IMG/VR virus record: IMGVR_UViG_3300031774_000017
Coordinates: 1 to 56,867 of that record
DNA length: 56,867 nucleotides
Strand: one strand, 5' to 3'
DNA from: a virus
Lineage: Duplodnaviria > Caudoviricetes
Under the pieces are notes generated by a model. It had not been told where the DNA came from and did not search any database. It saw only the letters and a program-made list of their open reading frames with translations. A program made the position numbers and the translations under genes. How positions within the stretch are numbered: the stretch's first letter is position 1; every line of letters begins with the position of its first letter. Shown here in pieces: positions 22,753 through 56,453 of this stretch.

Positions 22753-24986
22753 TGTATAAACAAACTTTATATAAAATACATACAGATCATTTAGATAAAA
22801 AATATACCAAAAATTTAAATAAAAATAAAAAATTTAAATATGGATATAATAGTGATTTAGATTGTGTTATTATTAGTAAGGATGGTACATTAGGTGATAT
22901 ATATGAAATACAAGGTCTTAAGGTAGGTATACCTCAAACCCCTAAAAAAATACACGGTAAAGATTTAAAAAAAGAAAAACAAGTATTTATAAGAAGGGAA
23001 AGACCACAATCGTTAACAAGAATAAAAACATTATATGATTTTCAAAGCTATACTGAAGATATTAAAGACCAATATTATAGTTACATCGATAATGAGTTTA
23101 ATTATCGTAATGATGGTTATTGGTTCATGTGCAACGGTACCCCGTGCTACCTTACAGGATCGCACTATATTTATCTCAACTGGACTAAAATCGATGTGGG
23201 CTCCCCAGACTTTCGACATGCAAACAGGATATTTTTCTACTTTTGGGAAGCATGCAAGGCTGATAGCAGATGCTATGGGATGTGCTACCTTAAGAATAGA
23301 CGGTCTGGTTTCTCCTTTATGGCGTCATCAGAATGTGTTCATCAGGCTACAACTTCAAAAGACTCTAGGTTTGGGATCTTATCTAAGAGTGGAGCAGACG
23401 CTAAGAAGATGTTCACGGATAAGGTGGTCCCAATCTCAACTAATTACCCGTTCTTTTTTAAACCAATACAGGATGGTATGGAACGCCCAAAGACGGAACT
23501 CTCGTACAAAGTACCATCAAGAAGGCTCACGAGGAATACGATACGAGCCACCAGCCCCGCCTCCTCTGAGATACAGGACGGATTGGACACCACAATTGAC
23601 TGGAAGAACACGGGGGACAATTCATACGACGGGGAGAAATTACAACTCCTCATCCACGACGAATCGGGTAAATGGGAGAGGCCGGACAACATCCTCAATA
23701 ACTGGAGGGTTACAAAAACGTGCCTCCGCCTCGGGGCGAAAGTAGTTGGCAAATGTATGATGGGATCCACTTCTAATGCGTTAGACAAAGGTGGTGATAA
23801 ATTTAAAAAATTATATTATAATTCAGATGTTACAAATAGAAATCGCAATGGCCAGACTACAAGTGGATTATACTCTTTGTTCATACCTATGGAATGGGGT
23901 TTCGAAGGATTTATTGATAAGTATGGATACCCTGTCTTCGATACTCCATCAGAACCGGTTGAAGGAATTGATGGCGAACTCATATATACGGGAGTCCTTG
24001 AACACTGGGAAAATGAAGTTGAGGGGCTAAAAAAAGACAGCGATGCTTTAAATGAATATTATAGACAATTTCCAAGATCAGAAAAGCATGCATTTAGAGA
24101 TGAAACTTTAAATTCTTTATTTAATTTAACTAAAATTTATGAACAAATAGATTATAATGAAGAAATGGAATTTAAAGGTCATGTAGTAAGAGGTGCTTTT
24201 TCATGGCAAAATGGTATAAAAGATACTAAAGTAATATGGACACCAACACAAAATGGTAGATTTAAAATATCGTGGATACCACCAGACCAATTACAAAATA
24301 ATGTTATTGAAAAAAATGGTATAAAATATCCTGGTAATGATGGATTGGGTGCTTTTGGGTGCGATCCTTATGATATATCAGGAACAGTTGGGGGTGGAGG
24401 ATCAAATGGATCTTTACATGGATTAACCACTTTTACAATGACTAGTGACGTACCTAATACAAAATTCTTTTTAGAGTACGTAGCAAGACCTCAAACAGCT
24501 GAAATATTTTTTGAAGATGTTTTAATGGCATGCATATTTTATAGTATGCCTATATTGATTGAAAACAATAAACCAAGATTATTATATCATTTAAAAAGAA
24601 GAGGGTATAGGGGTTTTTCTATGAATAGACCTGATAAATTAAAAGGTGCTTTATCTAAAACTGAATTAGAATTAGGTGGTATACCTAATAGTTCTGAAGA
24701 TATTAAACAAGCACATGCATCTGCTATTGAATCGTACATTGAAGAATATATTGGACGAAATGACGATTCATATGGTAATATGTATTTTCAAAGAACATTA
24801 GAAGACTGGGCAAGATTTGATATTTCACGCAGAACATCTTTTGATGCATCTATAAGTAGTGGTTTAGCCATAATGGCTTGTAGAAAACATTTATATAAAC
24901 CAAGCTCAGATAGAACAGTTAAAAAATTAGATTTTGAATTTTCACGATACAAAAATGAAGGGTATCAAAGCGAGTTAATAAAATAA
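22752..24986 (+). CDS. terL: Terminase large subunit
   Basis: LKNRRSGFS Walker A-like, LLIHDESGKW Walker B, GST motif III, GCDPYD nuclease, followed by portal. Confidence 0.92.
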   Translation: MYKQTLYKIHTDHLDKKYTKNLNKNKKFKYGYNSDLDCVIISKDGTLGDIYEIQGLKVGIPQTPKKIHGKDLKKEKQVFIRRERPQSLTRIKTLYDFQSYTEDIKDQYYSYIDNEFNYRNDGYWFMCNGTPCYLTGSHYIYLNWTKIDVGSPDFRHANRIFFYFWEACKADSRCYGMCYLKNRRSGFSFMASSECVHQATTSKDSRFGILSKSGADAKKMFTDKVVPISTNYPFFFKPIQDGMERPKTELSYKVPSRRLTRNTIRATSPASSEIQDGLDTTIDWKNTGDNSYDGEKLQLLIHDESGKWERPDNILNNWRVTKTCLRLGAKVVGKCMMGSTSNALDKGGDKFKKLYYNSDVTNRNRNGQTTSGLYSLFIPMEWGFEGFIDKYGYPVFDTPSEPVEGIDGELIYTGVLEHWENEVEGLKKDSDALNEYYRQFPRSEKHAFRDETLNSLFNLTKIYEQIDYNEEMEFKGHVVRGAFSWQNGIKDTKVIWTPTQNGRFKISWIPPDQLQNNVIEKNGIKYPGNDGLGAFGCDPYDISGTVGGGGSNGSLHGLTTFTMTSDVPNTKFFLEYVARPQTAEIFFEDVLMACIFYSMPILIENNKPRLLYHLKRRGYRGFSMNRPDKLKGALSKTELELGGIPNSSEDIKQAHASAIESYIEEYIGRNDDSYGNMYFQRTLEDWARFDISRRTSFDASISSGLAIMACRKHLYKPSSDRTVKKLDFEFSRYKNEGYQSELIK
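23035..23745 (+). CDS. Putative overprinted lipoprotein in +1 frame of terL (236 aa)
   Basis: Long stop-free +1 frame; basic N-region, hydrophobic IIVTSIMSLIIVMMV, lipobox IGSC; coincides with shifted codon usage in terL. Confidence 0.5.
   Translation: MIFKAILKILKTNIIVTSIMSLIIVMMVIGSCATVPRATLQDRTIFISTGLKSMWAPQTFDMQTGYFSTFGKHARLIADAMGCATLRIDGLVSPLWRHQNVFIRLQLQKTLGLGSYLRVEQTLRRCSRIRWSQSQLITRSFLNQYRMVWNAQRRNSRTKYHQEGSRGIRYEPPAPPPLRYRTDWTPQLTGRTRGTIHTTGRNYNSSSTTNRVNGRGRTTSSITGGLQKRASASGRK
23791..24030 (+). CDS. Second candidate overprinted ORF in +1 frame of terL (79 aa)
   Basis: Follows the 236-aa ORF in the same frame within the codon-shifted patch. Confidence 0.3.
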   Translation: MVINLKNYIIIQMLQIEIAMARLQVDYTLCSYLWNGVSKDLLISMDTLSSILHQNRLKELMANSYIRESLNTGKMKLRG

Positions 24987-24988
24987 GT

Positions 24989-27436
24989 ATGGCAAAATTA
25001 AAAGGAAAAGTTTTAACACAATTTCCAAGTCAAGCAGTTTCCGATGCAGAAAAACAAACTAAAAAGTATGGATTATCTGTAGGAAGAGCTATTGAACAAG
25101 AGTGGTTCAATAAGGATAATAATGGCATAGGGAAATTCTATAATTCTAGACAAGAAGCTCATAGGCTAAGATTATATGCTCGTGGAGAACAATCAATTAG
25201 AAAATACAAAGATGAGTTTGCAATTAATGGTGACTTATCTTATCTTAATTTAGATTGGAAACCAGTTCCAATTGTACCTAAATTTGTAGATTTAGTTGTA
25301 AATGGAATGCAAGATAGATTATTTCATATTAAAGCAGTTGGTCAAGATGATATTTCAACAGGTAAAAGAACTAAATTTGTTAATGATGTACAACAAGATT
25401 TAAATACAGCTAATCTATTATTAAATATAGAACAAAAATTAGGTGTATCTGCTAGAAATTTTGCCGTAAATGATTTACCTGCAAATACAGAAGAATTAGA
25501 ATTATATATGCAGCTTAATTATAAGCAAGGTATTGAAATAGCTGAAGAAGAAGCTATTAATAATATTTTTAAAGCAAATAAATATAATGAAACTAAAAAA
25601 CGTATTGATTATGATTTAACTGTATTAGGAATTGGTGCTGCTAAGCACACTTTCAATAATACAGATGGTGTAGTAGTTAAATATGTTGATCCAGCTAATT
25701 TAGTTTATTCATATACTGATGATCCTAATTTTGAAGATTGTTATTATTTTGGAGAAGTTAAATGCATAAAAGTTAATGAACTTAAAAAAGAATTTCCAGG
25801 ATTACCTAATGAAGAAATTGAAACTCTTGTTAGTCAAAGTTCAAGATTTAATGATTACAATGATCCCAATCATAATTTTTATAATCAAAGTGAGTTAGCT
25901 GCTAAAAATACATTAAATGTGCTTTACTTTAATTGGAAAACATGGGAAAATGATGTTTACAAAATAAAGGAAGTACCTACTGGCGGTAGTAAAGCTATTC
26001 CAAAAGATGACACATTTAATCCACCTAAAGATAAACGAACTAGATTTGAAAAAGTAAAGCAAACAAGAGAAGTTGTTTATGAAGGTGTATTAGTATTAGG
26101 ATCTGATCATCTTTTAAAGTGGCAAAAAGCTACAAATATGATAAGACCTACTAGCAATATAAATAAAGTAATGATGAATTATGTTGTTAGTGCTCCTAGA
26201 ATGTATAAAGGTAATATTACTTCTTTAGTTTCAAAAATGACACCATATGCTGATTTAATACAGCTAACACATTTAAAATTACAACAAGCTATACAGAGAA
26301 TGACACCTTCTGGTGTATATGTTGATGCTGATGGTCTTGCTGAAATTGATTTAGGTAATGGTACAAATTATAATCCACAAGAAGCTTTAAATATGTACTT
26401 TCAAACAGGATCTATAATTGGTAGATCTTTAACCATGGAAGGGGAAAGAAATAATGGAGCTATACCTATTCAAGAATTACCAGGTGGTGGTGGTAATCAA
26501 ATACAAGTATTAATTGGTGCTTATAATCAATATATACAAATGATAAGAGATACAACTGGTTTAAATGAAGCAAGAGATGCTGCAGATCCAGATCAATATT
26601 CTCTTGTAGGTGTACAAAAATTAGCAGCAGCAAATAGTAATGTTGCAACAAGACATATACTGCATTCTAGCATGTTTATTACCACTTGCTTAGCTGAGGC
26701 TATTTCATTAAGATTTAAAGATGTATTAGAATATCATCCTACTAAAGATATGTTTATAGATTCTATAGGCCAATTTTCTGTGGGTTCTTTAGAAGAATTA
26801 AATAATCTTAATTTACATAACTTTGGTATATTCTTAGAATTAGAGCCTGATGAAAATGAAAAACAATTATTAGAAAATAATATACAAGTTGCATTATCAA
26901 AAGATAGTATCCATTTAGAAGATGCTATTGATATTAGAGAAGTAAAAAATTTAAAATTAGCTAATCAATTATTAAAATTTAGAAGACTTCAAAAACAAGC
27001 TACAGATCAAGTGCAAGCTCAAGCTGCATCACGAGCACAAGCAGAAGCACAAGGACAAGCACAAATACAAATTGAAGAAGCAAAAGCACAATCTGAACAA
27101 GTAAAAACAGATTCTAAAATTCAATTATCTACAGCTGAAAATGAAATGTCTATTAGAAAAATGGAAATTGAAACAAGAGCTAAAAAAGAACTTATGCAAT
27201 ATGAATTTAATTTAAATGTTCAACTTAAGGAACTTGAACTAAAATCACAAATGGAGTTAGCAAATAGAAGTAATCAGTCAATGTTACAACGTGAGCTTAT
27301 AAGAGAAGATGTAAAACTTAAAACATCTGGTCGATTAAGTGGCGCTCCAAATACAGATAATCCTACAAAGGATTTTGAATCTAAAGGTAATGATACTTTA
27401 GGTGGCTTTGACACAGGACGTTTTGAAGCGTCTTAA
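24989..27436 (+). CDS. Portal protein
   Basis: 815 aa after TerL; LSYLNLDWKPVPIVPKFVD, TGLNEARDA, coiled-coil C-terminus as in crAss-like/Bacteroidota podoviruses. Confidence 0.88.
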   Translation: MAKLKGKVLTQFPSQAVSDAEKQTKKYGLSVGRAIEQEWFNKDNNGIGKFYNSRQEAHRLRLYARGEQSIRKYKDEFAINGDLSYLNLDWKPVPIVPKFVDLVVNGMQDRLFHIKAVGQDDISTGKRTKFVNDVQQDLNTANLLLNIEQKLGVSARNFAVNDLPANTEELELYMQLNYKQGIEIAEEEAINNIFKANKYNETKKRIDYDLTVLGIGAAKHTFNNTDGVVVKYVDPANLVYSYTDDPNFEDCYYFGEVKCIKVNELKKEFPGLPNEEIETLVSQSSRFNDYNDPNHNFYNQSELAAKNTLNVLYFNWKTWENDVYKIKEVPTGGSKAIPKDDTFNPPKDKRTRFEKVKQTREVVYEGVLVLGSDHLLKWQKATNMIRPTSNINKVMMNYVVSAPRMYKGNITSLVSKMTPYADLIQLTHLKLQQAIQRMTPSGVYVDADGLAEIDLGNGTNYNPQEALNMYFQTGSIIGRSLTMEGERNNGAIPIQELPGGGGNQIQVLIGAYNQYIQMIRDTTGLNEARDAADPDQYSLVGVQKLAAANSNVATRHILHSSMFITTCLAEAISLRFKDVLEYHPTKDMFIDSIGQFSVGSLEELNNLNLHNFGIFLELEPDENEKQLLENNIQVALSKDSIHLEDAIDIREVKNLKLANQLLKFRRLQKQATDQVQAQAASRAQAEAQGQAQIQIEEAKAQSEQVKTDSKIQLSTAENEMSIRKMEIETRAKKELMQYEFNLNVQLKELELKSQMELANRSNQSMLQRELIREDVKLKTSGRLSGAPNTDNPTKDFESKGNDTLGGFDTGRFEAS

Positions 27437-27467
27437 TATTTAAACAATTATTTTATTATATACAATT

Positions 27468-28781
27468 ATGGCAAAAGAAAAAACACAAGATTCATCTATA
27501 GAAGTTAAAGATATAGGTGAAATTAATCCTGAAACAGTAACACCTGCTAAAAAAGAAGCTGCAGTTTTACAAAAAGCAGTTGATGAAGGTAAGGTAGCCC
27601 CTGAATATGGATTACAAGAAGATGGAGTTTATAAAGTTAATTTAGATAAACCTCCCGTTCCTAAAGAGGAAATAAAAGAAGAAGTTAAAAAGGAAACAAA
27701 AGAGGAAACAAAAGATGCCGTTCAAGAGCAAGAAACAGGAAACATTCCTGAAGATAAATTATCCGACAATATACAAAAAGTGGAGGAAGAAGTACGGGCT
27801 GTTCAAGAACCGGAAATAAAAGAAGAAACTTCAGAATCTCCTTTAGAATTAGTTAATGATGAGAAAGATAACATTGACGAGAAACGAATGGATGGAAAGC
27901 CTCAAGCTACCAAACCCATATCGGAACAAAAAGAAATATTACAGGAAGAAAAAACACAAGAACTTCCTGAAGGAATAGATAAACTTGTACAGTTTATGCA
28001 AGAAACTGGAGGAACAGTAGAAGATTATGCAAAACTAAATAGAGACTATTCTAAAATAGATAACGTAAGTCTTATAAAAGAATATTACGAATACACTAAA
28101 CCACATCTAAATCAAGAAGATATTCAATTTTTAATGGATAAAAAATTTGCTTATGATGTGGAGGCGGATGACCCGTCTGACGTAAAAGCTAAGCAATTAG
28201 CTTTTAAAGAAGAAGTATTTAATGCACAAGAACTTCTAAGAACAACTAAGGATAAATATTATAATGATCTTAAGTTAAAATCAAAACAAAATAATATTCC
28301 TAAAGAGTACGAAGAAGCTATAAATTTTTATAATACTTCTAAGCAATTTGAAGAACAAAATAACTTAGCCAAAGAAAGTTTTTTAAAAGAAACTAAAAAA
28401 GTTTTTAACGAAGAATTCAAAGGTTTTGATTTTAAGGTAGGAGAAAACAAATATCGATTTAAGATAGATAATCCCGGTAAAGTTAAAGAGTCTCAATCAG
28501 ATATATCTAATTTTTTAAATCTGTTTACAGATGAAAAAGGTGGCATGCAAAACATGCAAGGATATCATAAAGCTTTATTTACTGCACAAAATGCGGATAA
28601 AATAGCAAATCACTTTTATGAGCAAGGCCGTGCTGATGCAATAAAAGAATCTGCTAGAAAAGCTAAAAATATAAATATGGATCCAAGGCAAGAAGGTGCT
28701 ACTATAACATCTAATAGTGGAGATAGGATTAGAGTTGTTTCTGGAGATTCGTCTGATAAGTTGCGAATTAAATGGAAATAG
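27468..28781 (+). CDS. Putative capsid scaffolding protein
   Basis: Acidic N-half, helical C-half with HFYEQGRADAIK; between portal and MCP. Confidence 0.7.
   Translation: MAKEKTQDSSIEVKDIGEINPETVTPAKKEAAVLQKAVDEGKVAPEYGLQEDGVYKVNLDKPPVPKEEIKEEVKKETKEETKDAVQEQETGNIPEDKLSDNIQKVEEEVRAVQEPEIKEETSESPLELVNDEKDNIDEKRMDGKPQATKPISEQKEILQEEKTQELPEGIDKLVQFMQETGGTVEDYAKLNRDYSKIDNVSLIKEYYEYTKPHLNQEDIQFLMDKKFAYDVEADDPSDVKAKQLAFKEEVFNAQELLRTTKDKYYNDLKLKSKQNNIPKEYEEAINFYNTSKQFEEQNNLAKESFLKETKKVFNEEFKGFDFKVGENKYRFKIDNPGKVKESQSDISNFLNLFTDEKGGMQNMQGYHKALFTAQNADKIANHFYEQGRADAIKESARKAKNINMDPRQEGATITSNSGDRIRVVSGDSSDKLRIKWK
27715..27819 (+). CDS. Overprinted small basic protein MPFKSKKQETFLKINYPTIYKKWRKKYGLFKNRK (+1 frame of scaffold)
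   Basis: Manually translated 34 aa; matches recalled MPFKSxxQ...P...W small phage protein pattern. Confidence 0.55.
   Translation: MPFKSKKQETFLKINYPTIYKKWRKKYGLFKNRK
27856..27978 (+). CDS. Overprinted small basic protein MMRKITLTRNEWMESLKLPNPYRNKKKYYRKKKHKNFLKE (+1 frame of scaffold)
   Basis: Manually translated 40 aa; NKKKYxRKxKHK tail. Confidence 0.5.
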   Translation: MMRKITLTRNEWMESLKLPNPYRNKKKYYRKKKHKNFLKE

Positions 28782-28803
28782 TTTAACTTAAAATCAAAAC
28801 ATT

Positions 28804-30399: not shown

Positions 30400-30409
30400 T
30401 TTTAACTAT

Positions 30410-30446
30410 AGGATACGGGCTCTTCGGAGCCCTATATCCTTATTTT
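30410..30446 (+). terminator. Hairpin after MCP (cUUCGg tetraloop)
   Basis: AGGATA-CGGGCTC-TTCG-GAGCCC-TATATCCT then T-rich tract. Confidence 0.75.
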
Positions 30447-30459
30447 ATATTATTTTATT

Positions 30460-31239
30460 ATGACAACACAAACAAAACCAAGAAGTTCTGTAACCGAAAT
30501 GGAAAAAAATTGGGTATATAAAGACAGAACTTATGTATTAACAGGACAATATGCACCTGTATCTTATACAATACAAACAAAACATACTCCTCGTAAACCA
30601 TTAATGTGGTTTGATGAAGGGTTAAAAATGAATAGAGAAATAAGATTAGCAAATAATCAAAAGTCTTTATTTGTAGATGAACAAGAAGGATTTGTTACAT
30701 TAACTCATGTAATGTTTCAAGATGGAACACTTATGGTTCCTCGTTCAGAAGTATCTATGCAAAAACTTTTATCTATTTATCATCCTTTAAAAGATAAAAA
30801 ATGGACTGAAGTTGATACTGCTAAAAAAGCTGCAGATGAAATTGATACTTTAGAATTTGAATTAGAAGCATTAACATTAGTAAAAGAGTTAGATATAGAA
30901 CATTTAGAAGCTATTATGAGAACTGAATTAGGTAGTGCAGTTGCTTCTATGTCATCTAAAGAATTAAAACGTGACGCTTATAAATTTGCACAACGTGAAC
31001 CTGCTTTATTTATAGAATTATCAGAAGATGAAGATATTAAATTAAGAAATTTAGCTAATAGAGCGGTCGAACAAGGCATAATTAATTTAACTGAAGATAA
31101 TACAGTATTTAAATTTGCAAACGGCAAAAAAATAATTACTGTACCATTTGATCAACATCCTTATGGAGCATTAGCTCAGTATTTTAAAACTGACGATGGC
31201 GTAGATCTAATGAAATCATTAGTTAAAAAGCTCAACTAA
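30460..31239 (+). CDS. Conserved protein downstream of MCP (259 aa)
   Basis: ORF; position in head module. Confidence 0.8.
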   Translation: MTTQTKPRSSVTEMEKNWVYKDRTYVLTGQYAPVSYTIQTKHTPRKPLMWFDEGLKMNREIRLANNQKSLFVDEQEGFVTLTHVMFQDGTLMVPRSEVSMQKLLSIYHPLKDKKWTEVDTAKKAADEIDTLEFELEALTLVKELDIEHLEAIMRTELGSAVASMSSKELKRDAYKFAQREPALFIELSEDEDIKLRNLANRAVEQGIINLTEDNTVFKFANGKKIITVPFDQHPYGALAQYFKTDDGVDLMKSLVKKLN

Positions 31240-31245
31240 GCTTAT

Positions 31246-47684: not shown

Positions 47685-47694
47685 AATAAATAAT

Positions 47695-47922
47695 ATGAGT
47701 AAAGAAAGTTATTTTAAAAATACAGAAAAAACATCAAGAAATAAACCGTTAAATTCTAGTGCTATTAATGATGCTATGGAGGTTATGAAACAATCTAAAG
47801 AAGATGCTTTGGTTGCTAATACTAAAAACATATATCAACAGGTATCACCTCAGAATGATAATAGTCAATTAAATAAATATTTATATCCGCCATATACAAC
47901 AGATAAAAAAGGTATGGCATAA
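47695..47922 (+). CDS. Small hypothetical protein (75 aa)
   Basis: ATG at 47695 within ORF 47557..47922; ends at terminator. Confidence 0.65.
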   Translation: MSKESYFKNTEKTSRNKPLNSSAINDAMEVMKQSKEDALVANTKNIYQQVSPQNDNSQLNKYLYPPYTTDKKGMA

Positions 47923-48173: not shown

Positions 48174-48187
48174 ATTATTAATTTATA

Positions 48188-49930: not shown

Positions 49931-50276
49931 TTAAATAATATATTAAGTATCCTATTGATACGTTTAAATTAACTAATACTAAGTTCCATTGTTTTGCAAC
50001 CCATACTTGAGGTATAGATAGTATGCCTCCTATAATATAAGTCATAACACCTATACTTTCATATGTTAATAAATATGGTGACATCATAATAAAGGCTGTA
50101 CCCATATAACCTAACCTGTTTGCAATTCTTTCTTTTGCTGTAAGTCTTCTATCTTGAACTAATAACCTTATAAAAGATCTTTTCCACCTAAACTCACATC
50201 TTATACAGGTTTTTTTACCTAAGTGCTTAAACTTATGATCTTTTTTCTTTTTTTTACAAACATTACAAACTCTCAT
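49920..50276 (-). CDS. Zn-finger (CxxC..CxxC) plus multi-TM membrane protein between nrdB and nrdA
   Basis: CNVC...CIRC then three hydrophobic segments incl. ILSIPQVW. Confidence 0.75.
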   Translation of the reverse strand: MRVCNVCKKKKKDHKFKHLGKKTCIRCEFRWKRSFIRLLVQDRRLTAKERIANRLGYMGTAFIMMSPYLLTYESIGVMTYIIGGILSIPQVWVAKQWNLVLVNLNVSIGYLIYYLNVE

Positions 50277-51245
50277 TTACCAAATATCTTCAAAGTCTTC
50301 ACCTTCATTAGCTTTCGAATAATCAGTCGGCCTAATAGAAAAGAAATCAGTATGAGTGTGCCCCCCGGTAAGATGGTAGAACCAGTCCAAATCACTCGCT
50401 CCAGCTTCGTCATATTCAAAGTATTTCCCGCTGTTTGAGTAACCGAGCTCAACAATTTTTTCGTTAAGACGTTTCCTGATAAATTGTTTAAGGTTATAAG
50501 ATTTGAGGTTTTCAATATCTCCTTGTTCAAACATTTTATCAATATATCTTTCTTCTGCTTTAAGCATTGTTTTTGCTGCTTTAATAACGTGTTCATAACA
50601 ATCATCTTGTAATCCTTTAGTTTCTTTACACATATGTCTAAATAACTGACATCCCATTTTAGAATGTAGTGATTCATCTCTTACACTCCATTTCATCTGT
50701 TGGCCAATGCCTTTGAGCAAATTACGCAACTGAAAGCTATATAGCACAGCAAAAGCGGAATAGAGACTAACACCTTCTGCAAATGCAGAAAATACAGCGA
50801 GAGACCTGCCAATCCCAATAGGGTTGTTACCAGAGTAACTAACAAGATTATCGAAGCGCTGGGCCGTGGCGGGTTCGTGTAAGAATGCTTCGAAATTTTC
50901 GAGTCCGAGTGTTTCATTTAAATAAGAATATGCTACTGCGTGAATTGTTTCTTGTGAGCCAAACATCATGGCCATCTGTTGGATTTCATATTTAGGAAAC
51001 CACGATACAACTTTTTGGGTCCAATAATCAGAAACCGCACATTCCGTTTGTGCAAATCCCAAAAGTATATTTCCAACCAAGTTCTTTTCTCCTTTGGTAA
51101 GTTTTTCATTCCAATCTTTGACATCACCTGACATTGGTATCTCTGTATGAAGCCAAAAAGCTTGTGCTTGTTTAAGCCAACCTTCTGTATAATATTCTGG
51201 ATATTCAAAAGGTTTATAAGGTATTCTTTCATCAAACAGTCCCAT
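50277..51245 (-). CDS. nrdB: Ribonucleotide reductase class Ia beta subunit
   Basis: QETIHAVAY, FAEGVSLYSAF, RDESLH di-metal motifs, TDFF..RPTDY C-terminus. Confidence 0.95.
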   Translation of the reverse strand: MGLFDERIPYKPFEYPEYYTEGWLKQAQAFWLHTEIPMSGDVKDWNEKLTKGEKNLVGNILLGFAQTECAVSDYWTQKVVSWFPKYEIQQMAMMFGSQETIHAVAYSYLNETLGLENFEAFLHEPATAQRFDNLVSYSGNNPIGIGRSLAVFSAFAEGVSLYSAFAVLYSFQLRNLLKGIGQQMKWSVRDESLHSKMGCQLFRHMCKETKGLQDDCYEHVIKAAKTMLKAEERYIDKMFEQGDIENLKSYNLKQFIRKRLNEKIVELGYSNSGKYFEYDEAGASDLDWFYHLTGGHTHTDFFSIRPTDYSKANEGEDFEDIW

Positions 51246-51441
51246 CTTTAGATTCTTCTTTTTTAGTTAATTCTTCTTTTAATTTTTCTATAGCTTTTTC
51301 GTAATCAGGAAATTTTTTTACCAATTGCATTGTACCTATAGATAAGTCGCGTAAATTTGTTAATTCTTGAATTACTTTATTTAAAGCTGCTCCTAATGAT
51401 TCAACTTTATTACGCATTTCTATTAATTTACTTTCCTTCAT
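51232..51441 (-). CDS. Small coiled-coil hypothetical protein
   Basis: ORF in packed operon. Confidence 0.7.
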   Translation of the reverse strand: MKESKLIEMRNKVESLGAALNKVIQELTNLRDLSIGTMQLVKKFPDYEKAIEKLKEELTKKEESKDGTV

Positions 51442-51643
51442 TAAAATATTTATTTAATGTTTTAATTCTATCATCTGCATCAACTAACATTTGTAATGCT
51501 TGCTCTGCATTTTTATAGTAATCATCAGTTGAATGATCGCCTATACCAGCAGCTTTATTACTTAATAGATCTAAACTAAGTAATGCTTTGGTTTTATCTG
51601 CTTCAGCAGATTTTAATAACATTTCATATAAGTGTAAGTACAT
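51428..51643 (-). CDS. Small hypothetical protein (AAGIGDHSTDDYY)
   Basis: ORF; GIGDH motif common in phage small proteins. Confidence 0.75.
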   Translation of the reverse strand: MYLHLYEMLLKSAEADKTKALLSLDLLSNKAAGIGDHSTDDYYKNAEQALQMLVDADDRIKTLNKYFNEGK

Positions 51644-51839
51644 CTTTACTAAGTATTATAGGACTTGCATCCTGGTTATTTTTAACTTCAATATGCGTTT
51701 CTTTAATAGAAACAATAGGTTCAATAGGTTCCATTATTCTTCTAATAACTTTACCATTTTGGTCTCTAATTACTTTCTTTTTAGAAAATAATCGTTTATA
51801 ATTTTTTAAAACGTATTCTTTTATTTTCTCTTCATTCAT
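51624..51839 (-). CDS. Small hypothetical protein
   Basis: ORF track. Confidence 0.65.
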   Translation of the reverse strand: MNEEKIKEYVLKNYKRLFSKKKVIRDQNGKVIRRIMEPIEPIVSIKETHIEVKNNQDASPIILSKDVLTLI

Positions 51840-51975
51840 AATGTAATGTTAAACAAATTTCTACAAAAGGAAAATATAATACATGCTCAGAAAACTTTTC
51901 TTCTGGATAACTTCTTATACCTATTAATACCCCAGGATATAATCCAATACTAATCTCCCAACCTTCTATATTCAT
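51832..51975 (-). CDS. Small hypothetical protein (47 aa, MNIEGWEISIGLYPGVLIGIRSY...)
   Basis: Manually translated; fills gap in operon. Confidence 0.6.
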   Translation of the reverse strand: MNIEGWEISIGLYPGVLIGIRSYPEEKFSEHVLYFPFVEICLTLHYE

Positions 51976-52075
51976 TTAAATAATAATTTAGCATTTTCAT
52001 ATGATGGGTTATTCTTTCTCTGTAATGTTCAGGTAGTGTAAATTCCGTGTTTTCCGTGGATTCTAATAATGTCAT
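51950..52075 (-). CDS. Small hypothetical protein (41 aa, ...HYRERITHHMKMLNYY...)
   Basis: Manually translated; fills gap in operon. Confidence 0.4.
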   Translation of the reverse strand: MTLLESTENTEFTLPEHYRERITHHMKMLNYYLNEYRRLGD

Positions 52076-52142
52076 TATATTTTATAATTTTATTATTTAA
52101 TAATTTTTTAATGTCTTTATCTAATAATCTTTTTGCATACAT
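52029..52142 (-). CDS. Small hypothetical protein (37 aa, MYAKRLLDKD...)
   Basis: ATG overlaps upstream stop (TAATG); 3' part of ORF 52029..52253. Confidence 0.5.
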   Translation of the reverse strand: MYAKRLLDKDIKKLLNNKIIKYNDIIRIHGKHGIYTT

Positions 52143-52600
52143 TACACGCGCTTCTTTCGCCTTCTTTCTTTGATCAACGTTATCGTCCGATCTACTTCCT
52201 TTTGATTTTGCGGCTTGTAAAGCGTCTTTCCAATTTTGTTTTTCGTAAGCCATAATTTAAATAATTTCCACCTTAAAGGAAAAGATTCATTTGGTCTGCC
52301 TTTGCATTCTATAATATAATCTTTACCAATAAAATCTGGTGTATATTTTATACCTAATATTTTTTTATCTCCTCTATTAATATATTCTCCTTTACTATTA
52401 GCTTGTTTTTCATAACTTGTATTACAAAAATGAAATGATTTTATTATTTCAAAAGTTTCATTTTCATAGCCTTCAAACAATTTATCTTTTTTTAAAGCCA
52501 TGTAAGTATATCTTTCAAGTCCTGACGCAAAATTAATACCATCATAAGATATTTTTTTAGCTTGCACAGGACCTCTTTTTTTACTCCTACGTTTTACCAT
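52142..52600 (-). CDS. PD-(D/E)XK endonuclease, T7 endonuclease I/resolvase-like
   Basis: FASGLE, YTPDF, IIECKG motifs. Confidence 0.8.
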   Translation of the reverse strand: MVKRRSKKRGPVQAKKISYDGINFASGLERYTYMALKKDKLFEGYENETFEIIKSFHFCNTSYEKQANSKGEYINRGDKKILGIKYTPDFIGKDYIIECKGRPNESFPLRWKLFKLWLTKNKIGKTLYKPQNQKEVDRTITLIKERRRKKRV

Positions 52601-52601
52601 T

Positions 52602-52877
52602 TTAATATGTTACATCCCAGTTTTTATCTGTAGTGTCTGATGTCCAACTAGATTCAGGGTATTTACTTAGTTTCTTATCTTCTTCGATTAGAACAGCTCT
52701 AATTTTTTCAATATAATTAGCGGCATCCATAAGTTCTTCTTGTAAATGATTAAGCCATGTGTCTAGCGTTTGATCATCTTTATCTAAACCAACACCATAC
52801 TTTTTATAGCCTGCTTCAGCACGTTTTTGAATCTTTTCAATTACGCGATTAATTATTTTGTCGTTTACTTTACTCAT
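52602..52877 (-). CDS. Small all-alpha protein, NTP-pyrophosphohydrolase-like
   Basis: KKYG...WLNHLQEELMDAANY. Confidence 0.6.
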   Translation of the reverse strand: MSKVNDKIINRVIEKIQKRAEAGYKKYGVGLDKDDQTLDTWLNHLQEELMDAANYIEKIRAVLIEEDKKLSKYPESSWTSDTTDKNWDVTY

Positions 52878-53634
52878 CTTTTACAAATGTTCCGTTAACC
52901 ATTTTACCTGTTCTTTTAGATATTACATTAAATGATTCATCAATGCACTCCTCAATTTTAAATCCTTCTAACTCTGAAAGATTAGCAAGTACTATTACCA
53001 TATCACCAATAGCATCTTTTATTTCAGGTTTATTTTGTTTTAATAATGCTTGTGCAAGTTCACCTGCTTCTTCCATTAATTTAATATATTGAGTTTTACT
53101 ATCACCTTTTTGATAAAGATTACGTTGTTTAGCCCACTCTCTTATTTTATTAAATGAAGATATATTATCTTTAACAAATTCTTTTGTAAATGCTTTATTA
53201 TATATATAACAAGTTGAAGGACCAAATTGACTTGATTGTACATTTTGTAATATCCATTCTATATAATCTTCATTTGTTAATTTAAAATTACCTTCTGGTA
53301 ATTCTAATTCAATACCTTTTAAAAATTCAGCATTAATATCTTGCGGTGATATTTTAAATGTTGTGGTTGCTTTTGATGAGCTATGTTTATTCATTTTTTT
53401 ATTAAATAAATCTTTATATAATTTATAATCTTGTTTATAATTTAATTCTTTTTGTAAATTCCATTCAGCTTTTGATGCTTTATCTATATCATCTGTTTCA
53501 TATAATATATCATATTCACCAGGCTTATAGCCTTGTTCTTTTTCAACACGCTTTTTAATATTAGTTGTACAACCAATTTTAATTCCTGGTATATGATATA
53601 TTTTGTATTTACCTGATTTTAATTTTAATGCCAT
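52870..53634 (-). CDS. Fusion: GIY-YIG-like N-domain plus MazG-like NTP pyrophosphohydrolase
   Basis: YKIYHIPGIKIGCT..IKKR; KLMEEAGEL...DAIGDMVIVL...ISKRTGKMVNGTFVK. Confidence 0.75.
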   Translation of the reverse strand: MALKLKSGKYKIYHIPGIKIGCTTNIKKRVEKEQGYKPGEYDILYETDDIDKASKAEWNLQKELNYKQDYKLYKDLFNKKMNKHSSSKATTTFKISPQDINAEFLKGIELELPEGNFKLTNEDYIEWILQNVQSSQFGPSTCYIYNKAFTKEFVKDNISSFNKIREWAKQRNLYQKGDSKTQYIKLMEEAGELAQALLKQNKPEIKDAIGDMVIVLANLSELEGFKIEECIDESFNVISKRTGKMVNGTFVKDE

Positions 53635-53644
53635 ATTTATATAT

Positions 53645-54481
53645 TTAATTACCTACAGACAACGGAGCTTTAATAGCTGGATGTGGATTGTAGTTTATTA
53701 TTCTTACATGTTTATGTTTAGGTATAAATAGTTTTTTATAACTCCATTTTGTTGATTCAACTCTAATACCCTTGTCTAACTCTAATTGTGGTAAAGCTTT
53801 TGAAGTTCTTTCAAGTTGTATGGTAGCTTGTTTTAAATGATTATTATACAAATGACAATCACCTAAATTACCAATTAATTGACCTGCTTTCATATTCGCA
53901 CCTTTAGCTAACATTTCAAGAAGTAAACCGTACATTGCTATGTCATAAGGTAAACCTAAAAATACATCTGCTGATCTTTGTTGCCACATTAAATCTATTT
54001 GGTTATCTCTACAATATACTTGAAAGTTATAATGACAAGGAGGAAGAACCATATCAGAGAGGTCACCTGGATTCCAAGCATTAACCATGAGCCTCCTCGA
54101 GCTTGCATTTTCCCTGATGTTTCTAACCAGTGAAGCCAATTGATCAACACCGTTAGAATTACGCCATTGATAACCATAAACCTTACCCAAAGTCCCGTCT
54201 GTTCTACCAGATCTTCTGTAATCATCATCCCAATATTTAACCTTATGCTTATGTAAATAAGCAATGTCAGTTTTACCTCTAAGTATCCAAATAAGTTCGG
54301 TAAGTGCATGATTAAAAAATACTTTTTTAGTTGTTAACAAAGGAAAACCTAAAGACATATTATGTTTTATAGTTTTACCAAATACAGATAAAGTACCTGT
54401 ACCAGTTCTATCTTGCTTAGGTTTACCACTATATAATATACTACCTAATAAACCTAAATATTGTTCTTCTATATTAATCAT
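53645..54481 (-). CDS. thyA: Thymidylate synthase
   Basis: DRTGTGT, FPLLTTKK, YGYQWR, LPPCH, QRSADVFLGLPYD, DCHLYNNH. Confidence 0.96.
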   Translation of the reverse strand: MINIEEQYLGLLGSILYSGKPKQDRTGTGTLSVFGKTIKHNMSLGFPLLTTKKVFFNHALTELIWILRGKTDIAYLHKHKVKYWDDDYRRSGRTDGTLGKVYGYQWRNSNGVDQLASLVRNIRENASSRRLMVNAWNPGDLSDMVLPPCHYNFQVYCRDNQIDLMWQQRSADVFLGLPYDIAMYGLLLEMLAKGANMKAGQLIGNLGDCHLYNNHLKQATIQLERTSKALPQLELDKGIRVESTKWSYKKLFIPKHKHVRIINYNPHPAIKAPLSVGN

Positions 54482-54759
54482 TGTTTTTCATAATAATATT
54501 TACACATATTGTAATATTCAAGCCATATTGTATTTTTATCATATATATGAGGTGCATAATATATTTTTTCACCTTTTTTATATGAACCCAATGCAATTGC
54601 TATTTTCCATTTACCCGGTTCATTATTAATACCATAAGGCGATATTCTTATATTATTATTTATACAATATTGTTGCCATTTTGTTTGGTCACGAGATGCG
54701 GTATGTGGTGGCATTTTATATGCATCTTTTTTCTTTTTACCTACTAACCCGCTTCCCAT
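54478..54759 (-). CDS. Hypothetical protein (93 aa)
   Basis: ORF overlapping both neighbours. Confidence 0.7.
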   Translation of the reverse strand: MGSGLVGKKKKDAYKMPPHTASRDQTKWQQYCINNNIRISPYGINNEPGKWKIAIALGSYKKGEKIYYAPHIYDKNTIWLEYYNMCKYYYEKQ

Positions 54760-56453
54760 GGCATTATTTCATTTGATACATCAAATACTGGTATATAATT
54801 ACCACTAGTATGATCCCATTTAAAATGAGCTTCAGCTTGATTTTCACCTAAGTTTTGAAACTTTACTTTTAACACTTTAACTTTAACAGTTTTTTTATTA
54901 TAATCACGATGCACAAGTAACCCATGATAGGAAGCGTCGTACCATTCTCCACCTCCTTTAATATTGTACATATTTGGTTCATCAATTGTTCCATCTTCTT
55001 TTTTATACATTTTAGTTGGGTGTGCTACAACTATAACTAATACATCATGCTTTTTAGCAAACGCTTCTATACGTGTTAAATATTCCATAGTTGCATCAGG
55101 TATACTCATATTAGCAGATCCATTCATTTTTATTTTATTATATGGATCAATAACTAGACATTTAATACCTTTACGCTTTACAAGTTCAGCACCTTTTTGT
55201 AATACAGCGTCTAAATCATATCTTTCATTTTCAATAAAATAAAAGTTATCATTTACAACTTCTGTTACTTCATTCCATTTATCAGAGTTTATATCTGCTT
55301 TTGATGGCATCCAGTCACCAATTTTACGCATTAATTTGTGTGCATGTAAAAATGTTGGCTTATTTTCTGGTGAAGCAAATGCTGTTTTCCAACCATATTT
55401 TAAGTTGTATCCAACCACCATTCTATCAACAAAATCAGACTTACCGCTAGAAGGCACGCCTGTGACGGTAATAAATTGTCCGGTATAAGTTGAAAATATG
55501 CTGTCAAAATTATCAAGGCCAATTTGATAGCCAGGTTTAAATCCTTCATGAATAAATTCTTGTAATTCTTCTGTTATATCATTTAATGTAACTACATTCT
55601 CTAAAGGAACAGGATTAGCTTCATCAACAAGACGCTTAAGCATGCTACTGCTGTGCCCCAACATATATTCATTAGCATCTTTGAAGTCGCTAAAACTAAT
55701 TGTATAGCAGACTTCTGCTCCAAAACGTCTAATGAGTTCTTGTTGTAAATTTTGTCCAGCTTCATCTCCATCGACTGCGATAATAATTTTGGATTTGTCT
55801 TCAAAATATTCAATGCAGTTATCGAGGTAATCAAGATTAAGGCGATTAAGAGTAGCTCCGTTCGGAACACTAACCACAGAGTTGACTTTAGATTCCATAA
55901 AAGATAAAGCATCCATTTCTCCTTCCACAATAACCACGTAATCATGCCCAATTGTACTATCAATATTATAAAATATTTTTTCTGCTCCTTTAACAAGCTT
56001 AAAGTTTTTTCTACCATCTCTATATTTTACATTTATTAAATCATTATTTATAAAATAATTAAATTGTATTGTATTTTCTTTTTTACTTGTTTGAGGCATC
56101 CATTCCTCACCTTCAGTTATTTTAGCTTTTATTAATGTTGATTGAGATATACCTCTCGATTCAAACCATTTAACAGCTTTATCACTGAGTAATACATTAT
56201 TTTTCCATTCAGGTTTAATATAGGTTTTGTCTATATTACCTTTTCTTTTATATGTATGTAATTGAAATACAGTATCACAATTCATACAAGTTCCGAGACC
56301 ACGCTCCCAATCGTACATAGCACATTTAGCTTTACGATTCTGTGGTTTACGATTAGCAGAGCAAAGAGGGCATATACCCTCTTGCTTGCCAACCTCTAAT
56401 TTATGTTGATTGAATGTATCAATCTGAAAACCATTAATCTCGGTAGTGTTCAT
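54744..56453 (-). CDS. DNA primase-helicase (T7 gp4/Twinkle-like)
   Basis: CPLC...CMNC Zn finger, VEGEMDAL/DGDEAG/KDANE TOPRIM, GVPSSGKS Walker A, VIDPYN, VAHPTK. Confidence 0.93.
   Translation of the reverse strand: MNTTEINGFQIDTFNQHKLEVGKQEGICPLCSANRKPQNRKAKCAMYDWERGLGTCMNCDTVFQLHTYKRKGNIDKTYIKPEWKNNVLLSDKAVKWFESRGISQSTLIKAKITEGEEWMPQTSKKENTIQFNYFINNDLINVKYRDGRKNFKLVKGAEKIFYNIDSTIGHDYVVIVEGEMDALSFMESKVNSVVSVPNGATLNRLNLDYLDNCIEYFEDKSKIIIAVDGDEAGQNLQQELIRRFGAEVCYTISFSDFKDANEYMLGHSSSMLKRLVDEANPVPLENVVTLNDITEELQEFIHEGFKPGYQIGLDNFDSIFSTYTGQFITVTGVPSSGKSDFVDRMVVGYNLKYGWKTAFASPENKPTFLHAHKLMRKIGDWMPSKADINSDKWNEVTEVVNDNFYFIENERYDLDAVLQKGAELVKRKGIKCLVIDPYNKIKMNGSANMSIPDATMEYLTRIEAFAKKHDVLVIVVAHPTKMYKKEDGTIDEPNMYNIKGGGEWYDASYHGLLVHRDYNKKTVKVKVLKVKFQNLGENQAEAHFKWDHTSGNYIPVFDVSNEIMPWEAG

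Follow-up and report, generated by a model that had tools for sequence, protein, structure and literature searches.

Do the long open reading frames (ORFs) present in the +1 frame of several core genes of a phage encode proteins of their own, or do they follow from the composition or the history of the genes that contain them (the host genes)? The question is raised by the window analysed here, a stretch of 56,867 nucleotides from the 57-kb dsDNA genome (~31% GC) of an uncultured marine podophage, which probably infects Flavobacteriia, as judged from its nearest isolates and from the lack of Shine-Dalgarno signals in the genome. A preliminary description of the window had proposed a systematic layer of nested genes in six genes. 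In our analysis, four to five of these six genes bear out the overlapping-gene reading, and the long +1 frames inside the terL, primase, RNR and thyA genes point to true nested genes overlooked by standard annotation. With five genes concerned out of about 47, "systematic layer" is an overstatement.

Long +1 frames in the window

The host genes and their +1 ORFs lie at the following positions:

22752–24986, + strand: terL (large terminase), host gene, a 744-aa ORF whose relatives carry the annotation terminase large subunit
23035–23745, + strand: terL+1 ORF, 236 aa, pI 11.7, the longest +1 ORF, coinciding with a GC3-rich patch
23035–23130, + strand: predicted lipoprotein-like signal peptide of terL+1, with a Lys-rich start, ~16 hydrophobic residues and [IT]GS-Cys at residue 32
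48188–49930, − strand: nrdA (RNR large subunit), host gene, Pfam Ribonuc_red_lgC (5e-90) and Ribonuc_red_lgN
49165–49527, − strand: nrdA+1 ORF, 120 aa, host codons 134–254
50277–51245, − strand: nrdB (RNR small subunit), host gene, Pfam Ribonuc_red_sm (2e-55)
50273–50677, − strand: nrdB+1a ORF, 134 aa in the window
50966–51235, − strand: nrdB+1b ORF, 89 aa, TTG start
53645–54481, − strand: thyA (thymidylate synthase), host gene, Pfam Thymidylat_synt (5e-89)
53995–54309, − strand: thyA+1 ORF, 104 aa, three hydrophobic segments
54744–56453, − strand: primase-helicase (T7 gp4-like), host gene, Pfam Toprim_2 at 174–263 and DnaB_C at 309–518
55601–56017, − strand: primase+1 ORF, 138 aa, hydrophobic (GRAVY 0.74), over the Toprim domain

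TerL itself gave no Pfam match. The closest isolate for the primase-helicase is Cellulophaga phage phi10:1 (42% identity), T7 gp4 being a distant relative (24.6% identity). Contigs from RNA libraries span the region; from such contigs, even transcription is uncertain.

The same-strand +1 ORFs previously noticed in terL, nrdA, nrdB, thyA and primase are present in the window, and the initial observation is to that extent largely real; it does not stand for scaffold, where the supposed single ORF (27715–27978) contains an internal stop and the longest +1 runs, 47 and 41 codons, lie within the shuffling null (P=0.55 to 0.74). The longest stop-free +1 runs reach 239 codons in terL, 130 in nrdA, 134, 92 and 74 in nrdB, 112 in thyA and 141 in primase, vs 42 codons in the portal gene and at most 35 codons in the +2 frame of every gene. 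The outer limits formerly assigned to terL (to 24030), primase (from 55400) and nrdB (the whole gene, with five +1 stops in all in the window) are too wide, as stops split each of them into separate runs, and the small nrdA patch at 48421–48540 amounts to a 39-aa ORF in a region (codons 460–500) open in only 17 of 80 relatives. The two local signatures that had been singled out, an in-frame ATA-CGA at terL codon 263 and an ATG-CGA at nrdA codon 206, were both found.

Run lengths were compared with two nulls: (i) a gene-wide synonymous shuffle (2000 per gene) and (ii) a block shuffle, which preserves codon usage locally (1000 each with 40-codon blocks; blocks of 20 codons were also used). Gene-wide, the runs exceed expectation in terL, nrdA, thyA and primase (P=0.0000 for each) and in nrdB (P=0.0020). 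The P values obtained with 40-codon and 20-codon blocks are, respectively, 0.005 and 0.07 for terL, 0.050 and 0.34 for nrdA, 0.277 and 0.52 for nrdB, 0.009 and 0.21 for thyA, and 0.000 and 0.01 for primase; the nrdB run length is not in excess under this stricter shuffle.

Avoidance of stop-making codon pairs among relatives

According to the preliminary description, NTA codons persist only before pyrimidines in the patches. Any stop-free stretch of a single genome obeys this rule by definition, so that the rule, trivial within the window, is evidence only across relatives, where it proved true: in the IMG/VR relatives, the codon pairs that make a +1 stop are shunned inside the ORFs only (for terL, 599 IMG/VR stretches encode one, and 80 were retained). 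In open alleles, NTA makes up 48–60% where it is harmless, i.e. before pyrimidines, vs 0% before purines. The portal control (56 sequences; longest +1 runs, 29–84 codons) is flat, with NTA at 3753/6206 positions before purines and 1905/3164 before pyrimidines (both 0.60, p=0.81; Fisher p-values here count related sequences as independent).

The primase+1 frame is open in all 29 relatives with at least 75% amino acid identity and closed in all five distant ones (31–40%). Within this ORF, the 29 close relatives use NTA for Leu, Ile or Val at 0 of 772 positions before a purine vs 148 of 246 before a pyrimidine; over all the relatives fetched, the counts are 33/877, all 33 in the five distant sequences, vs 163/293. 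Similarly, NTG before A gives 0 vs 156. By our own arithmetic, with ~26.6 at-risk sites per primase and an NTA use of 0.60 at safe sites, the chance of an unconstrained primase being open is ~1e-10. NrdA+1, open in 70 of 80 relatives, is the best-supported candidate nested gene: inside it, NTA is found at 53/1107 positions before purines vs 302/599 before pyrimidines, Met-Arg pairs use CGN 72 times and AGR 8 times, and, in many metagenome contigs, gene callers predicted the identical 116–124 aa ORF.

In nrdB, wide conservation of nrdB+1a is restricted to its 3′ part (50273–50464), from an ATG at host codon 260: host codons 260–321 are open in 75 of 81 relatives, with NTA, thirds summed, at 10/441 positions before purines vs 75/168 before pyrimidines. 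The whole window ORF (189–321) is open in 6/81 and nrdB+1b in 5/81; thus, most of the openness of nrdB in the window is common to only 5–6 of 81 relatives, and nrdB+1b is a weak candidate, probably lineage-specific or due to chance. As for thyA, host codons 62–148 are open in 37 of 81 relatives, the other 44 having at least three stops, and in 11 of the 81 the window ORF is free of stops throughout; judged by this distribution, thyA+1 is a presence/absence allele, found in some lineages only.

At the level of sequence comparison, the relatives demonstrate that the stop-free +1 frame is maintained by selection. The claim of nested genes under selection stands for four to five genes, with context-dependent stop avoidance, conserved starts (see below) and the flat portal control on its side, and falls for scaffold and the small nrdA patch. 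Could the frames have been open by chance in one ancestor and then simply inherited, the window having been picked for them? Long ORFs were indeed the reason for choosing the window, the relatives do not count as independent cases and four genes have weak P values with 20-codon blocks (0.07 to 0.52). We nevertheless find this barely credible: the relatives differ at ~40% of third positions and flank 4-fold sites are near saturation, yet there is no stop at the ~13–27 at-risk sites per relative; moreover, the at-risk columns vary among non-stop codons, closed alleles use NTA freely at the same columns and the portal control lacks such conservation.

Base composition and recombination of the terL segment

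A second alternative, raised by the preliminary description itself, is that GC-richer patches produced by recombination or biased gene conversion drop TA-ending codons and thereby lengthen +1 frames without selection. The codon-usage shift described in terL is real: GC3 is 0.37–0.73 in codons 120–330 vs mostly 0.00–0.20 outside, and the increase extends to all codon classes (non-NTN GC3, 0.50 vs 0.15). Furthermore, GC3 and openness are associated among terL relatives, the patch is exchanged through recombination and, within the window, higher GC3 goes with fewer +1 stops. Against this, the context test (NTA before pyrimidines vs purines) largely refutes a compositional origin: in the top third of terL sequences by non-NTN GC3, all 23 of which are open, NTA stands before a purine at 0/168 positions vs 71/120 before a pyrimidine. 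The next base covaries with the codon chosen within single columns, as seen at terL columns 141, 195 and 249 (TTG|C vs CTC|A; GTA before C only; TTA|T vs CTT or CTC|G). At GC3 ~0.30, some terL alleles are open over >200 codons and others are closed, and openness covaries with the start codons. The primase ORF is open with no GC3 shift (0.24–0.34 inside vs 0.17–0.29 outside; in three relatives, GC3 inside about equals that outside), and GC3-rich stretches do contain +1 stops, e.g. five in a part of the GroEL-like gene of this phage with a GC3 of 0.48 and 4–6 in the ORF region of the distant primases, at GC3 0.64–0.71. Altogether, a compositional by-product is very improbable.

The distribution of terL+1 is mosaic. 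Of 68 terL sequences, 42 have a +1 run of 130 codons or more across its place, and 8 are open over the entire ORF of the window. The open/closed state requires 10 changes on the tree of the flanks (6 of them forced by starred branches) and 2 on that of the patch. By these tree comparisons, the terL ORF is a presence/absence allele, swapped between lineages by homologous recombination within a conserved gene.

Conservation of starts, stops and synonymous sites

The starts of the +1 ORFs are kept, and so are several of the stops; those of terL+1 vary between host codons 195 and 330. More specifically, (i) 70 of the 71 open nrdA sequences have their first +1 ATG at host codon 134, and the stop is at codon 254 in 60 sequences and at 258 in 10; (ii) primase+1 has its ATG at host codon 145 in 29/29, with stops at 283, 286 or 287; (iii) the nrdB ATG at codon 260 is found in 65/77; (iv) an ATG at thyA host codon 57 is present in 73% of the 37 open alleles vs none of the 44 closed ones. 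Likewise, the nrdA+1 ATG is present in 70/70 open vs 5/10 closed alleles, the remaining five having ACG. In the window, the nearest upstream +1 stop lies 1–10 codons ahead of the ATG of the five ATG-start ORFs. Among 889 out-of-frame ATGs, the start context of primase+1 is at the 98th percentile; those of thyA+1 (63rd percentile), nrdA+1 (56th) and nrdB+1a (18th) are ordinary.

Depressed synonymous variation, which the preliminary description had proposed as a test, is clear in nrdA alone. At 4-fold non-NTN sites, diversity amounts to 0.444 vs 0.586 in nrdA+1 (p=0.0002) and is marginally lower in primase+1 (0.451 vs 0.516, p=0.09); it is not lowered in terL (0.604 vs 0.562) and indicates no synonymous constraint in the nrdB C-terminus (0.554 vs 0.573). 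C or G, rare at third positions, is kept more inside the ORFs, as seen for C in both nrdA (0.47 vs 0.30) and primase (0.46 vs 0.35). In the primase ORF, third-position identity and +1 amino acid identity are the same as in the flanks and the +2 frame, and the nrdA+1 alignment displays radical exchanges at single sites (e.g. L/R/H/P).

This pattern, strict openness with hardly any constraint on the amino acid sequence of the primase, terL and nrdB ORFs, would also be expected if the +1 frame were read but an independent protein were not what is selected: translation to a fixed end could serve coupling, ribosome traffic or mRNA protection, or programmed frameshifting or transcriptional slippage could enter the frame to yield trans-frame variants of the host protein. 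In keeping with this possibility, start contexts are unremarkable in three of five ORFs, and nrdA+1 ends at, or four codons ahead of, a conserved host-frame ATG (codon 258), with an ATGA overlap in 10 sequences. However, the end at codon 258 is forced by a host Met-Thr pair and need not be functional. The ATG that comes right after the nearest upstream stop is conserved, and closed nrdA and thyA alleles have lost both this ATG and the ORF, which fits independent initiation; the primase +1 stop lies three codons ahead of the ATG in 25/29, leaving hardly any room for an upstream shift site; and the signal segment and hydropathy pattern are conserved. We therefore regard this third alternative as unlikely, if less so than the other two.

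Predicted products and proposed explanation

We consider it likely that the primase-helicase, nrdA, terL and thyA genes at least, plus the 3′ end of nrdB, contain a second, same-strand coding ORF in the +1 frame. Each of these ORFs would be translated off the mRNA of the host gene from its own conserved internal ATG, and natural selection on host codon choice would hold the +1 frame stop-free through three rules: NTA codons for Leu, Ile and Val barred only before a purine, NTG barred only before A, and Arg after Met encoded by CGN. The terL segment passes between lineages through homologous recombination. The products would be fast-evolving proteins, without likeness to known families, that may play an accessory role at the cell envelope. 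Genes born by overprinting usually evolve fast and lack family resemblance, and, in Pfam and PHROG, the +1 products had no match at E<0.01; ESM-Atlas recognition scores (1879 and 1798) were within the range typical of shuffled sequences.

From their sequence features, thyA+1 and primase+1 look like small multi-pass membrane proteins, with the reservation, already made in the preliminary description, that hydrophobicity is partly built into the +1 frames of AT-rich genes. The three-peak hydropathy profile of thyA+1 is common to open alleles and absent from closed ones. The AlphaFold models of primase+1 (pLDDT 73, pTM 0.29) and of nrdA+1, predicted to be a small helical protein (pLDDT 66, pTM 0.52), are both only moderately confident.

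TerL+1, with a signal-peptide-like N-terminal segment followed by an Arg/Ser/Thr/Gly/Pro-rich region, has the features of a secreted or lipid-anchored, basic and probably disordered protein. GSC is retained in all 14 sequences of the window's terL clade, where third-position T in host codons 108–124 amounts to 0.67 vs 0.42 in closed alleles. In the other open clade, the T-rich segment lies at 124–134 (0.67 vs 0.53) and is followed by L[IT]T-Cys. Thus, each clade has T-rich third positions exactly at its own hydrophobic signal segment and T-poor ones afterwards. IGSC, like the other lipobox-like motifs found here, departs at one position from the consensus [LVI][ASTVI][GAS]C given in PMC6139136. 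Note that our scan for such motifs was permissive and biased against closed alleles, which are handicapped by their ORFs being cut short.

Comparison with known nested genes

Small out-of-frame hydrophobic membrane proteins are encoded by lysis gene E of phiX174, inside scaffold gene D, and by the lysis genes of ssRNA phages. Like these, primase+1 and thyA+1 sit within an essential gene, evolve fast and resemble no family; unlike those tiny, size-limited genomes, the 57-kb dsDNA genome leaves plenty of space between genes, and here the ORFs are contained in early replication genes. An evolutionary analogy, and only that, can be drawn with influenza A PB1-F2, a +1 ORF of the polymerase gene PB1 read by leaky scanning in an animal RNA virus: like PB1-F2, the present candidates are putative accessory +1 ORFs in a conserved replication gene, intact or truncated depending on lineage and evolving fast, with host-frame synonymous change little depressed.

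TerL+1 recalls the o-spanin Rz1 of lambda, embedded in the +1 frame of Rz (PMC6139136): both are same-strand, fully nested +1 ORFs in dsDNA phages, with a lipoprotein-type signal preceding a Pro-rich, low-structure region. Genes that arose by overprinting are generally enriched in disorder-promoting residues (PMC6139136). TerL+1 differs in that its host gene is a terminase instead of an i-spanin in a lysis cassette, it has ~200 aa after the Cys vs ~40 and its lipobox has one mismatch.

Finally, the T7 genome paper reportedly lists candidate genes 4.1 and 4.2 within gene 4 (primase-helicase) and 19.2 and 19.3 within terminase gene 19, said to be short and of unproven function. Like ours, these out-of-frame ORFs are nested in a primase-helicase and a terminase gene, without homology being implied; unlike them, the ORFs described here span 104–236 codons and have comparative support.

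Nested +1-frame ORFs in five core genes

The record, an IMG/VR virus sequence of 56,867 bases with ~31% GC and an estimated completeness of 88%, carries a structural and packaging block on the plus strand (terL, the portal gene and the gene of a 2595-aa protein) and a replication and nucleotide block on the minus strand (nrdA, nrdB, the MazG-like gene, thyA and the primase-helicase gene). Nested same-strand ORFs of at least 80 aa lying wholly inside a longer gene are confined to five genes, and all of them are in the +1 frame. The features concerned are:

5854-7440, plus strand: GroEL-like chaperonin gene (Pfam Cpn60_TCP1, 1.7e-57)
22752-24986, plus strand: terL (large terminase), containing terL+1 (23035-23745)
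24989-27436, plus strand: P22-like portal gene
39897-47684, plus strand: gene of a 2595-aa protein
49165-49527, minus strand: nrdA+1, inside nrdA
50273-50677 and 50966-51235, minus strand: two +1 ORFs inside nrdB
52142-52600, minus strand: Holliday-junction-resolvase-like gene, between nrdB and thyA
52870-53634, minus strand: MazG-like pyrophosphatase gene, between nrdB and thyA
53995-54309, minus strand: thyA+1, inside thyA
55601-56017, minus strand: primase+1, inside the T7 gp4-like primase-helicase gene

The stop-free +1 runs extend over 239 codons in terL, 130 in nrdA, 134, 92 and 74 in nrdB, 112 in thyA and 141 in primase, and the +2-frame runs in the window are all at most 35 codons long. 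Gene-wide synonymous shuffles gave mean longest runs of 38-71 codons (P<=0.002 for each of the five genes). With shuffling inside 40-codon blocks, which preserves local codon usage, terL (P = 0.005), nrdA (P = 0.05), thyA (P = 0.009) and primase (P = 0.000) still stood out and nrdB no longer did (P = 0.28); with 20-codon blocks, P was below 0.05 for primase only. The preliminary description had placed overprinting in these five genes, with a codon-usage shift, and in a patch of the scaffold gene as well. The five genes and the terL shift hold, and the scaffold patch drops out: its +1 ORF is of ordinary length (shuffle P = 0.55-0.74) and a stop lies inside the stretch proposed.

In terL, GC3 reaches 0.37-0.73 at codons 120-330 and is mostly <=0.20 elsewhere. 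This rise spans all codons, whether or not they can make a stop (GC3 of non-NTN codons, 0.50 versus 0.15), which, taken alone, would favor the preliminary description's own caveat that a GC-rich patch has merely lengthened the +1 frame. Coding in the other registers of the patch was considered and rejected, since stops per codon amount to 0.101 in the +2 frame and 0.038-0.080 in the antisense frames, only the +1 frame being stop-free. Note that a high GC3 does not by itself open the +1 frame: one 40-codon window of the GroEL-like gene, used as an internal control, has a GC3 of 0.48 yet five +1 stops.

Stop-making codon pairs are avoided in relatives

The only host codons that can make a +1 stop are NTA, when the next base is a purine, and NTG, when it is A. 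If composition alone kept the frame open, NTA should be equally rare before purines and before pyrimidines. Relatives of each gene were taken from IMG/VR and codon-aligned, and codon pairs were counted; the full-length loci kept were 67 of 80 for terL (length filter on the CDS, 13 partial loci excluded), 33 of 73 for primase and 55 of 80 for the portal gene, which served as a control. Overall, NTA makes up 0-5% before a purine versus 48-60% before a pyrimidine in the nested ORFs. In the portal control (flanks of the same loci, 56 sequences), the two values are 0.60 and 0.60 (p = 0.81), and the longest +1 runs are 29-84 codons.

In primase, no +1 stop occurs at host codons 143-283 in any of the 29 relatives at 75-88% identity, with NTA before a purine in 0/772 cases versus 148/246 before a pyrimidine, and with no NTG before A versus 156 before other bases. 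In the flanks of the same gene, NTA accounts for 40-45% before a purine versus 53-55% before a pyrimidine. GC3 is barely raised in this ORF and equals that of the rest of the gene in three relatives. Conversely, five distant primase homologues have 4-12 +1 stops in the ORF region, three of the five being GC3-rich. In nrdA, codons 134-254 are open in 70 of 80 sequences (NTA 53/1107 before a purine versus 302/599 before a pyrimidine), and the arginine of a Met-Arg pair is encoded by CGN in 72 of 80; the C-terminal part of nrdB (codons 260-321) is open in 75 of 81. Open alleles are less general in terL (42 of 68) and in thyA, where codons 62-148 are open in 37 of 81 and the remaining 44 have at least three stops. 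When the terL sequences were grouped into thirds by the GC3 of codons incapable of making stops, NTA was found in 0/168 cases before a purine versus 71/120 before a pyrimidine in the top third, and in 80/165 versus 111/139 in the bottom third; in single terL columns, codon choice covaries with the following base.

Thus, the scarcity of NTA before purines only, the open primase ORF with its hardly raised GC3 and the GC3-rich sequences that nevertheless contain +1 stops exclude composition as the sole cause. Chance combined with shared ancestry fares no better, because ~40% of third positions differ between relatives, a divergence at which shared descent could not by itself leave 13-27 at-risk sites per sequence free of stops. 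We consider that composition and chance each have a very small probability of being the cause. Conservation of the +1 frame in related phages, which the preliminary description had proposed as a test, is therefore borne out beyond codon-usage expectation, with a flat control. Selection acts on one reading register specifically; the terL patch has many stops in the +2 and antisense frames. A register-specific signal suggests that the +1 frame is read by ribosomes.

Starts and ends of the nested ORFs

In primase, the first ATG of the ORF lies at host codon 145 in 29/29 relatives, and in nrdA at host codon 134 in 70/71 open sequences. More specifically, the nrdA ATG is present in 70/70 open versus 5/10 closed alleles, the other five closed alleles having ACG, and in thyA 73% of open alleles versus 0/44 closed ones have the ATG at codon 57. 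The ORF ends fall within a narrow range in primase (283-287) and in nrdA (254 or 258, the latter being forced by a host Met-Thr). The expected conservation of starts and stops holds overall, but in terL the start differs between clades and the ends are variable. The start-context score, whose matrix derives from 46 gene starts and is not cross-validated, favors only primase+1 and, weakly, terL+1.

Each ATG in the window follows the last upstream +1 stop by 1-10 codons. This arrangement bears on the possibility that reading of the +1 frame is selected but yields no independent protein, as in a programmed frameshift: a conserved ATG immediately 3' of an upstream +1 stop argues against a trans-frame product, and we regard this possibility as unlikely. 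Genuine overprinted genes in the +1 frames are, judging from the comparative sequence data, the probable explanation.

Mosaic alleles and turnover

The open or closed state of terL requires at least 10 changes on the tree of the flanks versus 2 for the open state on the tree of the patch, and of two sequences that are sisters by their flanks, one may be open and the other closed. At its 5' border the open stretch varies little; the 3' border lies at codon 229, 263, 274, 296, 324 or 330. Recent spread of a single identical patch was rejected, as codon identity at conserved residues between the window and distant open alleles (0.33-0.48) is little higher than with closed alleles (0.31-0.41). Relatives also contain +1 ORFs that the window lacks: in nrdA, one from codon 287 to ~440 (36/80, with an ATG at 287 in 25-26) and another over codons 0-100 (19/80); in thyA, a second ORF at codons 165-240 in a subset. 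Together, the mosaic terL states and the additional ORFs indicate that this lineage gains and loses nested ORFs and exchanges them through host-gene recombination. Of two cultured relatives checked, neither MW202828.1 (freshwater, terL) nor Cellulophaga phage phi10:1 (primase) has a same-strand nested ORF of at least 70 aa.

Constraint on the nested products

The nested products are weakly constrained. At 4-fold sites unable to make stops, diversity is reduced inside the nrdA ORF (0.444 versus 0.586, p = 0.0002) and marginally so in primase (p = 0.09), and terL and nrdB show no reduction; the depressed synonymous variation expected of nested genes is clear in nrdA only. Pairwise 4-fold distances are lower within the nrdA, primase and terL ORFs, these estimates being noisy, and third positions with a rare C or G are better retained inside ORFs than outside. 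Amino-acid identity in the primase +1 frame is the same as in the +2 frame and in the flanks. 

Searches of the nested products against Pfam and PHROGs gave nothing under E=0.02, and no credible relative was found in the ESM Atlas, so that the database comparison proposed in the preliminary description matched no family. A profile search with A1, an alignment of nrdA+1 ORFs (the window plus 53 of 67 distinct relatives' ORFs; A2 comprised all 28), returned 78 proteins: in essence this nested ORF again, as predicted on metagenome contigs, together with frame-fused nrdA fragments. AlphaFold models of the nested products are helical with moderate confidence, too uncertain for a fold search. Weak constraint is the main weakness of the case for nested genes; together with the lack of a family match, it gives a profile compatible with young overprinted genes. 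The preliminary description's observation and its proposal of selected nested genes both hold in part, the proposal being sustained by context-specific openness in relatives and by the starts, and less so by synonymous constraint, which is weak beyond nrdA.

Predicted features of the products

In the window's clade, terL+1 has a Lys-rich start, ~16 hydrophobic residues and an [IT]GS-Cys motif (14/14), while the corresponding elements of the other open clade, Lys-Lys, a stretch of hydrophobic residues and L[IT]T-Cys, lie about ten codons downstream. Closed alleles have stops and polar residues at the position of this putative signal segment. In each clade, the host third positions are T-rich exactly across the clade's own hydrophobic segment and T-poor beyond. 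The remainder of terL+1 is a basic sequence with much Arg, Ser, Thr, Gly and Pro, a composition that calls for G or C in the third positions of the host gene; the GC3-rich patch may thus have resulted from the overlap rather than given rise to it. Open alleles of thyA+1 display three hydrophobic peaks separated by polar loops, absent from closed alleles, and primase+1 has three to four hydrophobic segments. Since +1 hydrophobicity is partly inherent in AT-rich genes, the hydropathy of primase+1 is weaker evidence.

Nested genes of phages include phiX174 E within D, and T7 genes 4 and 19 contain short candidate nested ORFs. Lambda Rz1, a lipoprotein, is encoded by a +1 gene nested within Rz, according to PMC6139136, which also gives the lipobox consensus [LVI][ASTVI][GAS]C. 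With our own scan pattern, IGSC or TGSC in the window's clade (14/14) is one position off this consensus, and the motifs of the other open clade (LITC, ICTC or similar) also mismatch it at one position each. Rz1-type o-spanin genes are embedded in, or lie beside, the i-spanin gene of a lysis cassette, whereas the host gene of terL+1 encodes the large terminase. Likewise, thyA+1 and primase+1 resemble class I holins, which have three transmembrane segments, in hydropathy pattern only: they match no Pfam or PHROG family and lie in early replication genes, not beside an endolysin gene. The likeness to spanins and holins does not go past general resemblance. In the open-access literature, at the level of listings and abstracts, we found no description of ORFs of this kind for this group of phages. 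The novelty lies in how many ORFs there are, how long they are and which genes host them, in their presence/absence alleles and in how strong the comparative signal is.

Host and possible roles

The closest isolates are phages of Cellulophaga and Flavobacterium (protein identity 32-42%), and G-rich Shine-Dalgarno signals are absent at the window's gene starts; for these reasons, the host is probably a member of the Bacteroidota. Near-identical contigs spanning 48188-56453 occur in three marine RNA libraries (X3, X4 and X5) and a doubtful one (X1), and are uninformative on transcription, strand, ends and translation.

Tentatively, an abundant marine phage lineage may hide in its most conserved genes an accessory set of +1 genes, several of them aimed at the cell envelope, mobile by recombination and serving arms-race functions. 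This set would include one lipoprotein-like and two holin-like predicted membrane proteins. Nested in essential conserved sequence, such genes would be undeletable, and homologous recombination of a core gene would ferry them between distantly related phages, which would explain the scattered terL have and have-not alleles and the extra nrdA and thyA ORFs. Candidate roles would be superinfection exclusion, anti-defense or the phage's unrecognized lysis functions; no holin, endolysin or spanin was recognized among ten window proteins scanned with PHROGs.

To our knowledge, gene callers forbid fully nested same-strand genes, which is why ORFs of this kind are missing from phage annotation. If the nested ORFs are genes, they are invisible to every standard caller and catalogues systematically miss a class of genes. 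The evidence is unusually clean, with zero stop-making pairs among hundreds of chances, a flat control and dozens of natural relatives, for nested ORFs of 104-236 codons maintained in genes for terminase, primase, ribonucleotide reductase and thymidylate synthase in a common marine lineage. They would offer natural test cases for gene birth by overprinting, for two proteins sharing one sequence and for the question of whether conserved genes act as safe, recombination-mobile carriers of fast-evolving accessory genes. The comparison of NTA before purines and pyrimidines in relatives is simple and applicable to all phage gene families.

Other features of the window

Positions 1-900 are non-coding and extremely AT-rich (GC 0.14 across the first 1000 bases) and consist of degenerate short tandem repeats, e.g. 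TTTTATT and TATAA-type units; this region may be a genome end or origin-like. A 121-aa ORF (47557-47922, plus strand), with no PHROG match, overlaps the gene of the 2595-aa protein in another frame over its final 128 bases. Six antisense ORFs of 92-167 aa lie within annotated genes; nrdA and primase together contain three, and the terL patch one:

4029-4532, minus strand: antisense ORF
9256-9693, minus strand: antisense ORF
23444-23788, minus strand: antisense ORF
48567-48878, plus strand: antisense ORF
49464-49745, plus strand: antisense ORF
54964-55242, plus strand: antisense ORF

Finally, in one contig of library X5, positions 52464 and 54648 are separated by four other letters, and 2183 bases, comprising the MazG-like gene and thyA, are missing; the shorter side of the junction is only 24 letters long, and the contig may reflect a relative without this block or an assembly artefact.
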